IMG/VR virus record: IMGVR_UViG_2695420644_000001
DNA length: 4,958 nucleotides
Source of the DNA: a virus
Lineage: Duplodnaviria > Heunggongvirae > Uroviricota > Caudoviricetes
Direction: 5' to 3' (one strand)
In this document: positions 1-4,958 of the stretch, piece by piece
Numbering within the stretch: position 1 is the first letter of the stretch
Layout of the letters: the number at the start of each line of letters is the position of its first letter
Program-made: the position numbers and the translations under genes
Notes under the pieces: model-generated
What the model was told of the DNA's origin: nothing
Seen by the model: the letters and a program-made list of their open reading frames with translations, nothing else
The model's database searches: none

Positions 1-211
1 GGGCGGTTGCCCGGCATCCAACACCATTCATGGCCATATCAATGATTTTCTGGTGTGTACCGGGTTGAGAAGCGGTGTAAGTGAACTGCAGTTGCCATGT
101 TTTACGGCAGTGAGAGCAGAGATAGCGCTGATGTCCGGCAGTACTTTTACCGTTACGCACCACGCCTTCAGTAGCTGAGCAGGAGGGACAACTGATGGAG
201 ATGGAAGCCAC
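1..211 (-). CDS. insA: IS1 InsA, N-terminal about 70 codons; 3' end cut by window edge
   Basis: GTG start at 211 (minus strand). Translation [70 protein letters not shown] matches InsA with a few substitutions. The track ORF 28-240 is a different frame. Confidence 0.85.
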
Positions 212-243
212 GGGAGCACCTCAAAAACACCATGATACACTAA

Positions 244-266
244 ATCAGTAAGTTGGCACCATTACC
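244..266 (-). repeat. IS1 terminal inverted repeat (about 23 bp)
   Basis: Reverse complement of 244-266 is ggtaatggtgccaacttactgat, against canonical IS1 ggtgatgctgccaacttactgat. Confidence 0.8.
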
Positions 267-268
267 AG

Positions 269-445
269 GATGCGGAGCATGGTGAGGCTGGTCACTTCAC
301 TTCCATCGAGCAAGAATATCCCCAGATACTCAACAGAGCGCGAGCAATCCTCGCCCGAGAAACGGCACATGTAAAACTTCAGCCGTGGCAGGATGATAAG
401 TGGAGTCGAGTATTGCCGCATTTACCTCAGAATCTGTTTCAATAA
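269..445 (+). pseudogene. Possible 3' remnant (58 codons) of an unidentified gene truncated by the IS1 insertion
   Basis: Frame is open from the IS1 boundary to TAA at 443-445 (…NRARAILARETAHVKLQPWQDDKWSRVLPHLPQNLFQ), followed 19 bp later by a hairpin. No start codon context and no family recognised. Confidence 0.25.
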
Positions 446-463
446 AGGCGCTAGTTAGTAAGG

Positions 464-489
464 CTTCCGTCATTCTGCGATGACGGAAG
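464..489 (+). terminator. Perfect 10-bp inverted repeat hairpin (cttccgtcat / atgacggaag, 6-nt loop); possible terminator of the upstream remnant
   Basis: Stem seen directly in sequence. No clear U-tract follows, so terminator function is uncertain. Confidence 0.25.
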
Positions 490-499
490 TGCGGGCTGC

Positions 500-619
500 G
501 TACGGGAGAGCAATTGTATGAATAATATAAATATTCCGCTCACTCCATATAGCGATTTCTGATACAAACTTATCTATTGTGGTAAAATTATAGAAACAAA
601 CTTATAGCGTACTAACCAT
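500..619 (+). promoter_or_regulatory. AT-rich putative promoter/leader region upstream of the HNH-motif gene
   Basis: AT-rich with -35-like hexamers (ttgtat 514-519, ttgtgg 577-582) but no convincing spaced -10 and no Shine-Dalgarno before the ATG at 620. Confidence 0.2.
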
Positions 620-1402
620 ATGGACAATATTAATAAACACGGGCTCTCAAGAAGAATACCTGAGACAATAAAACGTCAGATAAGGCAAAGGTGCGGCTTT
701 GGCTGTGTAATTTGTGGATTTGGATTTTATGATTATGAGCATTTTAAACCTGACTTCGTTGATGCCAAAATACATGATCCGAATGGAATGACACTTCTTT
801 GCTCCCAATGCAATCAAAAAAGAGCTCGTGGTAGACTTTCAGCACAGACAGTGGAAATAGCTGACAGAAATCCCAAGTGCTTACAGGCTGGTTTTGCAAA
901 TGAAATGTTTGATTTTCATAATGAGCCTATAACAGTAAAATTTGCAGGAGTGACGTTTCATAACTGTCAAAATTTGATTGTAGTCAACGAACAACCCATT
1001 CTTTCTGTGAAACCTTCACCCATACCACATGGACCGATGCTTTTATCAGGAATTTTCTGTAATTCTATTGGTAAGGAGACTTTACTGATAGATGAAAATG
1101 AATGGAAAGCTAAATCAGACAATTGGGATGTGGAGTGTACCGGCCCGCGTATAACAATACGACGTGGGCCAGGAGAGTTTGCCCTCGTTCTAAAAATGGA
1201 ACCTCCAACAGGATTGATTGTTGAGCGTCTTGATATGTTGTATGAAGGGGTCAGGATGAAAGGAGATAAAGATCTGCTGGAAGTTTCGATTAATGGAGGT
1301 CCCTTGCACAGATGGCAATCATGCTCAATGTCAAATTGCCATACAGGGCTTGCGATTCAGGGCGGTATTAGAGCTGCTAATGATCCTTTGTATTGCGCCT
1401 AA
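620..1402 (+). CDS. Hypothetical protein with N-terminal HNH (beta-beta-alpha-metal) nuclease motif; C-terminal ~190 aa unrecognised
   Basis: 260-aa ORF. Residues 25-67 read C-x3-C-x2-C … EH-x2-P … DPNG … LLCSQCNQK, fitting the HNH pattern of CxxC, catalytic His, Asn, CxxC-N. By rough count about 40% GC against over 50% in flanking genes. No Shine-Dalgarno. Confidence 0.7.
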   Translation: MDNINKHGLSRRIPETIKRQIRQRCGFGCVICGFGFYDYEHFKPDFVDAKIHDPNGMTLLCSQCNQKRARGRLSAQTVEIADRNPKCLQAGFANEMFDFHNEPITVKFAGVTFHNCQNLIVVNEQPILSVKPSPIPHGPMLLSGIFCNSIGKETLLIDENEWKAKSDNWDVECTGPRITIRRGPGEFALVLKMEPPTGLIVERLDMLYEGVRMKGDKDLLEVSINGGPLHRWQSCSMSNCHTGLAIQGGIRAANDPLYCA

Positions 1403-1443
1403 ATCCACTAAATTGATTTTCAACAATCAACTTGCCATAATTA

Positions 1444-1474
1444 AGTCACCGGAGTTTGAACTCCTCCGGTGACT
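1444..1474 (+). terminator. Stem-loop (10-11 bp stem gtcaccggag / ctccggtgac) between the HNH-motif gene and the nin genes; possible tR2-like terminator
   Basis: Strong inverted repeat 42 bp downstream of the stop at 1400-1402. Trailing ttctg is only a weak U-tract. Confidence 0.35.
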
Positions 1475-1496
1475 TCTGCGCTAAACGGGGACGTTT

Positions 1497-1598
1497 ATGC
1501 GCACATACAATCCAACCTCTCTTCTCCATTCACAGATGCAGAAATGCACCTGCGATATTTTGCATCCAGCGTTTGATCTCTGCGGAGGTGAAGCGTGA
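1497..1598 (+). CDS. Small ORF (33 aa, Cys-rich) coupled to ybcN; possibly ylcH-like
   Basis: ATG at 1497 with gggga 6-10 nt upstream. Stop TGA at 1596-1598 overlaps the ybcN GTG (GTGA). Translation [33 protein letters not shown]. Identity rests on position, not on recognised sequence. Confidence 0.45.
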
Positions 1599-2050
1599 AC
1601 CTCCCACAAGATGGTATCAAATTGCATCGCGGTAACTTCACCGCTATCGGTCGGCAGATCCAGCCTTATCTGGAGGACGGCAAATGCTTTCGCATGGTGC
1701 TTAAACCGTGGCGCGAGAGACGCAGTCTTTCCCAGAATGCACTCAGCCACATGTGGTACAGCGAAATCAGTGAATACCTCATCAGCAAGGGTAAAACGTT
1801 CGCTACTCCAGCTTGGGTAAAAGATGCTCTCAAACACACATATCTCGGTTATGAAACCAAAGACCTGGTTGATGTCGTAACCGGTGATATCACCACTATC
1901 CAGTCGTTACGCCATACCTCCGATCTTGATACCGGAGAGATGTATGTCTTCCTGTGTAAGGTTGAAGCCTGGGCGATGAATATTGGTTGCCACCTGACTA
2001 TTCCACAGAGCTGCGAGTTTCAGCTGCTGCGCGACAAGCAGGAGGCGTAA
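1595..2050 (+). CDS. ybcN: NinB/Orf-family recombination protein (YbcN-like)
   Basis: 151 aa, GTG start with GGAGG 6 nt upstream. Motif [15 protein letters not shown] resembles the lambda NinB core; position is directly upstream of ninE-ybcO-rusA. Confidence 0.88.
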
Positions 2051-2220
2051 TGGCTACACCGCTTATTCGTGTCATGAACGGACACATCTACAGAGTACCA
2101 AATCGTCGTAAGCGTAAACCTGAGCTGAAGCCATCCGAAATACCAACACTGCTCGGATATACCGCCAGCTTGGTTGATAAAAAATGGTTGCGACTGGCAG
2201 CAAGGAGGAGTCATGGCTGA
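2050..2220 (+). CDS. ninE: NinE-family small protein (56 aa)
   Basis: ATG at 2050 overlaps the ybcN stop (TAATG), GGAGG upstream. Basic KR-rich protein with …GYTASLVDKKWLRL… resembling lambda NinE. The track ORF 1987-2220 is an N-terminal over-extension. Confidence 0.82.
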   Translation: MATPLIRVMNGHIYRVPNRRKRKPELKPSEIPTLLGYTASLVDKKWLRLAARRSHG

Positions 2221-2503
2221 TTTGAGAAAAGCAGCGCGTGGTCGGGAATGCCAGGTAAGAATCCCTGGCGTATGTAATGGCAACCCTGAAACGTCTGTAC
2301 TGGCACATATCCGGCTGGCTGGATTGTGCGGTACCGGTATCAAACCGCCAGACCTGATTGCCACCATTGCATGTTCTGCCTGCCACGACGAAATCGACCG
2401 CCGCACACATTTTGTCGATGCTGCATATGCAAAAGAATGCGCGCTGGAAGGTATGGCGAGAACACAGGTTATCTGGCTGAAAGAGGGGGTTATTAAGGCG
2501 TGA
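2213..2503 (+). CDS. ybcO: YbcO-family (DUF1364) Cys/His-rich putative nuclease, 96 aa
   Basis: ATG at 2213 with AGGAGG 3-10 nt upstream. Translation [34 protein letters not shown]…[11 protein letters not shown]… The track ORF 2174-2503 is over-extended. Confidence 0.88.
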
Positions 2504-2862
2504 ATACCTACAGCATCACATTACCCTGGCCTCCGAGCAATAATCGCTATTACCGCCATAATCGCGGGCGCACGCACATCAGCGCAGAGGGGCAGGCATA
2601 CCGCGATAACGTCGCCCGAATCATTAAAAACGCAATGCTGGATATCGGCCTGGCTATGCCTGTGAAAATCCGCATTGAGTGCCACATGCCGGATCGCCGT
2701 CGCCGTGACCTGGATAATCTGCAAAAAGCCGCTTTTGACGCACTCACTAAAGCAGGTTTCTGGCTGGATGATGCTCAGGTCGTTGATTACCGCGTTGTGA
2801 AGATGCCTGTTACCAAAGGTGGGAGGCTGGAACTGACCATCACCGAAATGGGGAATGAATGA
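2500..2862 (+). CDS. rusA: Holliday junction resolvase RusA (120 aa)
   Basis: GTG at 2500 overlaps the ybcO stop (GTGA). Translation [25 protein letters not shown]…[10 protein letters not shown] matches RusA essentially full length. Confidence 0.95.
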
Positions 2863-2957
2863 TGTTTGAGTTTTATATGGCAGAACTTCTTCGCCACCGC
2901 TGGGGGCATCTGCGCTTATATCGTTTCCCCGGTTCTGTTTTGACCGATTACCGAATC
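2859..2957 (+). CDS. ylcG: ylcG-like small ORF, first 33 codons only; truncated at junction
   Basis: ATGATG at 2859 overlaps the rusA stop (ATGA). [33 protein letters not shown], after which the sequence becomes antisense rlpA. Confidence 0.55.
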
Positions 2958-2958
2958 C

Positions 2959-3024
2959 ATCATCGCTTGTACATGCCGCGAGCATTCCTGCCGCGATGCA
3001 GATCCCGAGCCACTGCTTACGCAT
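2959..3024 (-). CDS. rlpA: rlpA, first 22 codons only (lipoprotein signal peptide with lipobox LAAC); truncated at junction
   Basis: Minus-strand ATG at 3024 with GAGG Shine-Dalgarno, 10 bp after the rodA stop. MRKQWLGICIAAGMLAACTSDD matches the RlpA N-terminus and the known order mrdB-rlpA. Boundary uncertain by about 3 nt. Confidence 0.8.
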
Positions 3025-3034
3025 TGCGCACCTC

Positions 3035-4030
3035 TTACACGCTTTTCGACAACATTTTCCTGTGGGTGTGGATTGACATTACAATCCCGAACCCAGCCAT
3101 CAGCACAATTAGCGCCGATCCTCCATAACTGACCAGTGGGAGCGGAACCCCTACAACCGGCAGAATACCGCTTACCATACCAATATTTACGAAGACATAA
3201 ACGAATAATATCAGCATTAAGCCGCCAGCCATGACGCGACCAAAGGTGGTTTGCGCTCTGGCGGCTATCCACAGCCCGCGCATGATCAGCAGAATGTAGA
3301 GAGCGAGCAGAATCAGAATGCCCACTAATCCCAGCTCTTCCGCCAGTACCGCGAAGATAAAGTCAGTATGGCGTTCGGGGAGAAATTCAAGCTGTGACTG
3401 AGTGCCGTGCAGCCAGCCTTTGCCGCGTAATCCGCCGGAGCCAATAGCAATTTTAGACTGAATAATGTGATAGCCCGCGCCGAGTGGGTCTGATTCCGGG
3501 TCCAGGAGCATCATTACGCGCTGGCGCTGGTAATCATGCATCAGGAAGAACCACAGAATCGGAATGAACGCCGCTACCAGCACTACTGCGACGCCAATCA
3601 GACGCCAGCTAAGGCCAGAGAGGAACAGTACAAACAGACCGGAAAGCGCAACGAGGATTGATGTTCCCAGGTCAGGCTGTGCAGCCACCAGCAGCGTGGG
3701 CATAAATATCAGCACCAGCGCGATGCCAGTGTTCTTCAACGATGGCGGGCAAACGTCGCGGTTGATAAAGCGCGCAACCATCAGTGGTACGGCTATTTTG
3801 GCAATTTCCGACGGCTGAAAACGAACAATACCGAGGTCCAGCCAGCGTTGAGCACCTTTAGAGATGGCACCGAAAGCATCTACCGCCACCAGCAAAATAA
3901 TACAGATGATATAGAGATAGGGGGCCCAGCCTTCATAAACGCGTGGAGGAATTTGCGCCATCACCACCATGATGACCAGACCCATCGCGATTTGGCCGAT
4001 TTTACGCTCCATCATGCCAATATCCTGACC
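3035..4030 (-). CDS. mrdB: RodA (MrdB) SEDS-family peptidoglycan polymerase, residues about 40-370; 5' end missing
   Basis: Translation from [23 protein letters not shown]… to …[14 protein letters not shown] matches E. coli RodA to its C-terminus; stop at 3035-3037. The 83 residues upstream in the track ORF (3035-4279) are antisense proS. Confidence 0.93.
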
Positions 4031-4958
4031 GATGTGGTCTTCTCCGACACCTCTGACTATGCAGCGAACATTGAACTGGCAGAAGCTATCGCGCCGAAAG
4101 AACCGCGCGCTGCTGCTACCCAGGAAATGACGCTGGTTGATACGCCGAACGCGAAAACCATCGCGGAACTGGTTGAACAGTTCAATCTGCCGATTGAGAA
4201 AACGGTTAAGACTCTGCTGGTTAAAGCGGTTGAAGGCAGCAGCTTCCCGCTGGTTGCGCTGCTGGTGCGCGGTGATCACGAGCTGAACGAAGTTAAAGCA
4301 GAAAAACTGCCGCAGGTTGCAAGCCCGCTGACTTTCGCGACTGAAGAAGAAATTCGTGCCGTGGTTAAAGCCGGTCCGGGTTCACTGGGTCCGGTAAACA
4401 TGCCGATTCCGGTGGTGATTGACCGTACCGTTGCGGCGATGAGTGATTTCGCTGCTGGTGCTAACATCGATGGTAAACACTACTTCGGTATCAACTGGGA
4501 TCGCGATGTCGCTACCCCGGAAATTGCTGATATCCGCAACGTGGTGGCGGGCGATCCAAGCCCGGATGGTCAGGGTACGCTGCTGATCAAACGTGGTATC
4601 GAAGTTGGTCACATCTTCCAGCTGGGTACCAAGTACTCCGAAGCACTGAAAGCCTCCGTACAGGGTGAAGATGGCCGTAACCAAATCCTGACGATGGGTT
4701 GCTACGGTATCGGGGTAACGCGTGTAGTAGCTGCGGCGATTGAGCAGAACTACGACGAACGCGGCATCGTATGGCCTGACGCGATCGCACCGTTCCAGGT
4801 GGCGATTCTGCCGATGAACATGCACAAATCCTTCCGCGTACAGGAGCTTGCTGAGAAACTGTACAGCGAACTGCGTGCACAAGGTATCGAAGTGCTGCTG
4901 GATGACCGAAAAGAACGTCCGGGCGTGATGTTTGCCGATATGGAACTGATCGGTATTC
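4031..4958 (+). CDS. proS: Prolyl-tRNA synthetase ProS, internal fragment (about residues 214-522, includes editing domain); truncated at junction and window end
   Basis: Plus-strand translation [42 protein letters not shown]…[17 protein letters not shown]…[21 protein letters not shown] matches E. coli ProS. Confidence 0.93.

Follow-up and report, generated by a model that had tools for sequence, protein, structure and literature searches.

The stretch of DNA analyzed here (the window) is 4,958 bp long and makes up the whole of contig CCCC01000104.1, to which it is identical in sequence, in the draft Escherichia coli assembly GCA_000937575.1. When BLAST matches to 5,426 complete E. coli genomes are refined by local alignment to the fetched loci, the window falls into four segments: the end of an IS1 element (1-265), lambdoid prophage DNA (266-2956), a piece of the rlpA-mrdB locus (2957-4031) and an internal piece of proS (4030-4958). 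The sharp discontinuities in the window are accordingly the IS1 terminus at 265/266, the switch from the prophage gene ylcG to antisense rlpA at 2956/2957, and the join between mrdB and proS at 4030-4031. An Rfam scan of the window returned no RNA family.

The IS1 segment is the left end of the element (insA side, minus strand), with its terminus, ...CCATTACC, at 265/266; it has 1 mismatch in 265 positions against an IS1 copy in strain ST-131 and is 93.5% identical to another IS1. This exact terminus adjoins prophage DNA and interrupts a gene for a P22AR C-terminal-domain protein, the remnant of which occupies the start of the prophage segment; in AW1.7 the same gene is uninterrupted (2857-3180 of the fetched stretch). 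The arrangement looks like a natural insertion of IS1. The joint at 265/266 occurs in 0 of the 5,426 complete E. coli genomes and is absent from the JGI metagenomes.

The prophage segment (plus strand) derives from a DLP12-like lambdoid prophage and has an unbroken match in AW1.7, with 99.93% identity and 2 mismatches, and, again with 2 mismatches, in one NCBI draft. Downstream of the P22AR-C remnant it carries, all on the plus strand, an ORF of 260 aa (620-1402), a ylcH-like ORF (1497-1598), ybcN (1595-2050), ninE (2050-2220), ybcO (2213-2503), rusA (2500-2862) and codons 1-32.7 of ylcG (2859-2956). YbcO and RusA have strong Pfam matches, while NinB and NinE fall slightly under the curated cut-off. 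Similarity to the DLP12 prophage of K-12 starts at 1413 and stands at 97.3% from there onward; the DNA upstream is an AW1.7-type module made up of the P22AR-C remnant and the 260-aa ORF. We regard 1412/1413 as an ordinary lambdoid mosaic boundary and not as an assembly break, since the stretch is unbroken in AW1.7, in NCCP12480 and in the NCBI draft. The nearest relatives of the prophage segment have emrE-ybcK upstream, which places them at the DLP12 site; in EC291 a similar module resides on another prophage.

The 260-aa ORF has no Pfam family; from end to end it matches phrog_6544 (E = 3e-141), whose function is unknown. Its N-terminal part, rich in Cys (about residues 10-87), gives weak matches to HNH endonucleases (phrog_7785, 6e-4; PADLOC PtuB, 0.04). 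The slot that it occupies, upstream of ylcH-ybcN, varies among prophages, others of which hold a PRTase-CE protein with NADAR, a NACHT protein, a SNIPE nuclease or ybcL-ybcM in this position, and it may be a hotspot for defense or other cargo genes.

The two chromosomal segments are readily assigned. The first (2957-4031) is 100% identical to K-12 665,123-666,197 and comprises, in antisense, the 5' end of rlpA, a 10-bp spacer and the 3' part of mrdB. The rlpA piece (2957-3024, minus strand) spans codons 1-22.7 and encodes the lipoprotein signal peptide (MRKQWLGICIAAGMLAAC TSDD), and the mrdB (rodA) piece (3035-4031, minus strand) runs from the stop codon back to about codon 39, with the first 38.7 codons missing; its product matches the Pfam family FTSW_RODA_SPOVE at E = 6e-127. 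Both pieces are also 100% identical to UMNK88. The second chromosomal segment is an internal fragment of proS (4031-4958, plus strand) that covers about codons 220-529 of 572, has neither start codon nor promoter and continues to the end of the contig. It matches the Pfam families tRNA_edit, tRNA-synt_2b and HGTP_anticodon, and it is 100% identical to UMNK88, 1303, EC291 and others and 98.2% identical to K-12. This proS allele (4032-4958) is uncommon, being found at 99% identity or above in 108 of 5,424 complete-genome records; its 100% matches include UMNK88, the bovine mastitis strain 1303 and several isolates named ETEC, and the isolates listed with it, mostly from pig, poultry or human, hint at the lineage of the source isolate.

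The switch from ylcG to antisense rlpA is present in the sequence. Compared base by base with both parents, the prophage match stops at 2956 and the rlpA/mrdB match begins at 2957, so that the two are flush, with 0 bp of microhomology. The earlier note, made from the sequence of the window, had put the junction at about 2955-2958, which is right to within one base, and its account of the parts on either side also holds. The rusA and ylcG genes overlap in an ATGA, with the ylcG start codon at 2859; ylcG keeps 98 nt (32.7 codons) and rlpA keeps 68 nt, in agreement with the 33 and 22 codons proposed; and alignment to the parents bears out that the remainder of ylcG, the antiterminator Q gene (quuD) and the body of rlpA are missing. 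BLAST places the two sides in a DLP12-like prophage and at the rlpA/mrdB locus, respectively, as had been supposed. All 33 YlcG residues remain unchanged because the codon at the join passes from ATA to ATC, both of which encode Ile. There is no full-length ylcG ending at 2957: the gene has 46 codons in AW1.7 and in K-12, which shows it to be truncated here and not a short but complete homologue. Members of the YlcG family (PF26818) are about 46 residues long at full length and end in ...ILKNYAKTLTGAGV, and the window matches residues 1-33 before it diverges. The earlier note had further described the junction as the second sharp discontinuity in the sequence; the junction is indeed sharp, but any break at about 1497 is ordinary lambdoid mosaicism.

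Nothing at the junction points to a specific recombination pathway that might have produced it. As the earlier note had reported, it carries no IS terminus, no direct repeat and no att-like core, and we found no inverted repeat there; the parents share 0 bases at the crossover, and the nearest 4-mer common to both of them (CTGA) has been lost from the product. A scan of 2600-3300 revealed neither a promoter-like nor a terminator-like site. As a separate observation, the 25 nt that span the junction (2939-2963) match a part of mrdB (3991-4015) at 18 of 25 positions, with CCATCAT exact in both, and the mrdB copy ends 16 nt before the mrdB/proS join; only 1.7% of the 25-mers in the window have a second match that good. 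This similarity is probably due to chance, and we found no mechanism that would use it.

The junction is also rare. The earlier note had held that the two loci are not neighbors in known E. coli gene order, and none of the 5,426 complete E. coli genomes joins ylcG to rlpA; no reference for this adjacency thus exists among finished genomes. It is spanned by 0 plasmid and 0 phage records, and neither the GTDB representative genomes nor the JGI metagenome contigs contain its exact sequence. Two NCBI draft contigs alone are known to carry it, CCCC01000104.1 and CDRN01000277.1. Several records of the plasmid collection PLSDB contain mrdB-rlpA; these are 4.8-4.9 Mb in size and appear to be chromosomes filed as plasmids.

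Reading frames that run across the junction give the same picture. Translation from the second ATG yields a fusion ORF of 88 aa (2862-3128, plus strand), in which YlcG residues 2-33 are followed by a read-through of antisense rlpA/mrdB. An exact look-up among 153 billion gene positions found this ORF in 2 contigs, both of them from NCBI, and no copy was found in Logan or ENA assemblies. The versions given by the longest ORFs (2859-3128, plus strand; 3035-4279, minus strand; 2521-3024, minus strand) are not on record, while the version starting at 2862 is. The 89-aa form of the read-through has no Pfam match at E <= 0.01. We consider the 88/89-aa YlcG read-through, and the 167-aa ORF that begins with the RlpA signal peptide, to be most likely meaningless. 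Look-ups of the neighbors of rusA and of the truncated RodA returned normal contexts only, and a literature search on the WGS prefixes and assembly accessions of both contigs found nothing relevant.

When the junction is projected on to the K-12 chromosome its two sides fall into a simple relationship. The prophage segment ends at 573,827 and the rlpA-mrdB segment starts at 665,123, both on the plus strand, with 91,295 bp between them; the sides are thus collinear and on the same strand and have the geometry of a 91,295-bp deletion. A random join would find so close and collinear a partner with a chance of about 1%. In K-12 the interval from 573,827 to 665,123 holds the late half of DLP12, ompT, the cus genes, ent/fep, ahpCF, the cit genes, lipAB, dacA and the body of rlpA, and these genes are non-essential in rich medium. 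On the right-hand side of the junction the 3' end of mrdB, including the stop codon, and the 10-bp spacer are preserved.

The mrdB/proS join, 1,075 bp further on, is of a different nature. Here mrdB passes into the interior of proS at about codon 220. Two bases (CG) at the join are ambiguous, and it links K-12 position 666,197 in mrdB to 218,119 in proS in an orientation inverted relative to K-12. The join occurs in 0 of the 5,426 complete E. coli genomes, its exact sequence is absent from the GTDB representatives, and no IS sequence, target duplication, att-like core or shared repeat was found at 4031. The proS gene is a single-copy essential aminoacyl-tRNA synthetase gene (Keio collection). 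The join splits this gene and cuts away 38.7 codons of mrdB, and it therefore cannot represent the sole copy of these loci in the cell.

The assemblies from which the junction is known are themselves informative. GCA_000937575.1 consists of at least 1,660 contigs; in CCCC01001660.1, which is only 997 bp long, an identical 265-bp end of IS1 adjoins other DNA, a gene for a GerE/LuxR-type regulator. Contigs of this assembly stop inside unique genes, as the window does in proS at 4958 and as contig 1660 does in the cut gene at its end. Together with the small size of contig 1660, this indicates a very fragmented assembly. The sister contig, CDRN01000277.1 (GCA_000944855.1; 4,002 bp), has the fusion ORF at an equal offset, from which we infer that it also carries the IS1/prophage joint and begins at the same base. 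In the stretch that was read it is identical to the window over 2507-3195, and hence carries the ylcG/rlpA junction. At 3196, 239 bp past the junction, it switches from mrdB, with an overlap of 0 bp, to the 3' end of mlaB (125 nt), followed by GGATANGTGCNNNAAG, which contains four Ns, and then by the interior of lamB to the end of the contig (3196-4002 of the record). The mlaB, lamB and mrdB loci lie megabases apart on the K-12 map, and the 239-bp and 125-nt pieces are about as long as a sequencing read, which makes the sole other record of the junction a patchwork too. The four Ns are not at positions where mlaB and lamB differ, and look like poor base calls of one read. The two contigs therefore agree across the ylcG/rlpA junction and disagree on the path from 3196: the mrdB/mlaB join of the sister contig is contradicted by the window, which goes on normally in mrdB, and the sister contig ends before it reaches the mrdB/proS join.

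From this evidence we think it probable, with a good measure of doubt, that the ylcG/rlpA join arose as a chimera in a poor draft and that the living chromosome lacks it. During library preparation, unrelated pieces of the sheared DNA of one E. coli genome would have been ligated blunt end to blunt end, and a permissive assembly of thin data could then have let such chimeric molecules bridge pieces that are not connected. The junction common to the two drafts would be explained if both drew on the same library molecules or reads. The 239-bp rlpA-mrdB piece and the 125-nt mlaB piece of the sister contig would be small fragments of one concatenated library molecule, which the assembler of the window may have left at 3195 to follow genuine mrdB reads. 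That the sister contig derails only 239 bp past the junction is expected if the ylcG/rlpA and mrdB/mlaB joins enclose a single small fragment.

Several features of the sequences are consistent with this model. The numbers of ambiguous bases at the ylcG/rlpA, mrdB/proS and mrdB/mlaB joins are 0, 2 and 0, and random blunt joins give 0, 1 or 2 such bases with P = 0.56, 0.28 and 0.11. Both chromosomal segments are undiverged, at 100% identity to the normal loci of one strain, UMNK88. Each of the two host contigs also has other private joins of the same blunt type, of which the mrdB/proS join is biologically untenable and the mrdB/mlaB join is contradicted by the window. There is precedent for misassembled contigs that stem from single chimeric reads and whose breakpoints show no sequence bias (10.1101/866020). 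Against a chimeric origin stands the presence of the junction in two accessioned assemblies; if these came from independent isolates and libraries, they could not share a random ligation. In addition, the ylcG/rlpA junction alone among the joins has a partner that is both collinear and close (91 kb downstream on the same strand), for which chance allows about 1%; the interval that it spans holds no gene essential in rich medium; and both contigs appear to share positions 1-3195, along with the IS1 insertion that looks natural.

These objections are the strength of the principal alternative, in which a deletion of about 91.3 kb, real and private to the strain lineage, joined ylcG illegitimately to rlpA codon 22 and only the later joins are artefacts. 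We regard this as a genuine possibility, if a rather unlikely one. It accounts directly for the collinear, same-strand positions of the two sides in K-12 (573,827 to 665,123), and the relatives of the prophage segment do sit at the DLP12 site, with emrE-ybcK upstream. The loss would be tolerable, as the genes of the interval are dispensable in rich medium and mrdAB would be left intact, with the 3' end of mrdB, its stop codon and the 10-bp spacer all kept. The junction and the private IS1 insertion are moreover common to two assemblies, while each later join is private to one contig. The anatomy of the junction argues the other way. More than 30 events of native end joining in E. coli all involved 1-3 nt of microhomology, and the model for alternative end joining calls for 1-9 nt (10.1101/605246); a joint with 0 bp is atypical of this process. 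The derailment of the sister contig 239 bp after the junction is a better fit to a small concatenated fragment, both host contigs contain unsupported joins of the same blunt type, and the fusion ORF is missing from all Logan and ENA assemblies and from all other NCBI genomes. The chimeric reading thus remains the one that we prefer, and under either reading the junction is no new kind of element.

It is very improbable that the whole patchwork is real, with a prophage break at ylcG repaired by end joining that captured chromosomal filler while intact copies of the genes persisted elsewhere. Such an event would be harmless, as the 1,075 bp of rlpA-mrdB and the proS piece of at least 927 bp are promoterless and would be present as extra copies; both are 100% identical to a single UMNK88-like background; and alternative end joining enables E. 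coli to link unrelated DNA (Chayot et al. 2010, as summarized in 10.1101/605246). The sister contig contradicts the arrangement 239 bp past the ylcG/rlpA junction, and the window stops inside proS without a return to the prophage. Microhomology at the joins amounts to 0 and 2 bp, nothing similar was found in any other genome searched, and duplicated segments of 1 kb normally break short-read contigs.

We give still less credence to a mixture of strains, from a contaminated or metagenomic sample, with the joins as switches from one strain to another. The starting point for this idea is that identity to K-12 differs by segment, at 97.3% for the prophage, 100% for rlpA-mrdB and 98.2% for proS. 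As a mobile prophage module, the prophage segment is uninformative on the chromosomal background, and UMNK88 alone has both chromosomal segments at 100% in their normal places, so that no mixed origin is needed and one phylogroup-A-like background is possible. The joins, furthermore, connect different loci and not alleles of one locus.

The action of a mobile element or site-specific recombinase, be it an IS1 adjacent deletion, an aberrant prophage excision or the acquisition of a phage moron, is suggested by the IS1 end 2.7 kb upstream of the junction and by the prophage DNA to its left, but it is effectively refuted by the junction anatomy, as the IS1 terminus lies away from the junction at 265/266, no terminal inverted repeat, target duplication, att-like core or shared repeat is found at 2956/2957 or 4031, and the rlpA/mrdB piece is in no phage record.

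Three further candidates were rejected. An engineered reduced-genome K-12 strain does not fit, with the prophage segment only 97.3% and the proS fragment only 98.2% identical to K-12 and a non-K-12 module upstream of 1413. Ligation at restriction sites, including that of Hi-C or 3C protocols, does not fit either: the four fragment ends have no palindromic and no common site. Chimeras formed by multiple displacement amplification (MDA) usually join nearby inverted sequence via microhomology, and the partners here lie from 91 kb to megabases apart with overlaps of 0-2 bp.

The joins in CCCC01000104.1 and CDRN01000277.1 are unfit for inferences about synteny, the pangenome or rearrangement, and spurious fusion proteins derived from them, namely an 88-aa 'YlcG', a 326-aa RodA and a cut ProS, have already entered the protein databases. 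A real ylcG/rlpA junction would amount to an unremarkable illegitimate deletion, unusual in its blunt joint, and would mean at most a private, strain-specific loss of ompT, the enterobactin genes, lipAB and dacA; otherwise the junction is a problem of assembly quality. Filler capture, if it had taken place, would be a natural case of Ku-independent, non-homologous DNA capture in enterobacteria.

The nin region of DLP12 in K-12 (ylcH-ybcN-ninE-ybcO-rusA-ylcG-quuD) has the same gene order as window positions 1413-2956, at 97.3% identity, and shares with it the ATGA overlap of rusA and ylcG. Unlike DLP12, the window ends at ylcG codon 33, with quuD and the lysis genes missing, and the AW1.7-type module upstream of 1413 replaces ybcL-ybcM.

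IS1-mediated adjacent deletions put an IS terminus at the novel joint. The window does have an IS1 terminus against prophage DNA at 265/266, in a joint private to these assemblies; in contrast to such deletions, the ylcG/rlpA and mrdB/proS joins are without IS sequence.

The alternative end joining of E. coli depends on RecBCD and LigA, proceeds without Ku or LigD, and makes possible both large deletions and the incorporation of unrelated DNA; it is described by Chayot et al. (2010) and in 10.1101/605246. The 0 nt of microhomology at the ylcG/rlpA junction differs from the 1-9 or 1-3 nt given for it.

A close parallel is with the contigs built from chimeric reads (10.1101/866020), which like the window have flush joins of unrelated loci without a signature at the breakpoint. 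That case concerns nanopore long reads from a fungus; it also differs in that the ylcG/rlpA junction is common to two accessioned assemblies, so that a chimera here requires shared reads or a shared library. As in chimeric draft contigs, the joins of the window stand in short contigs of a fragmented draft, and the assemblies that contain them disagree downstream.
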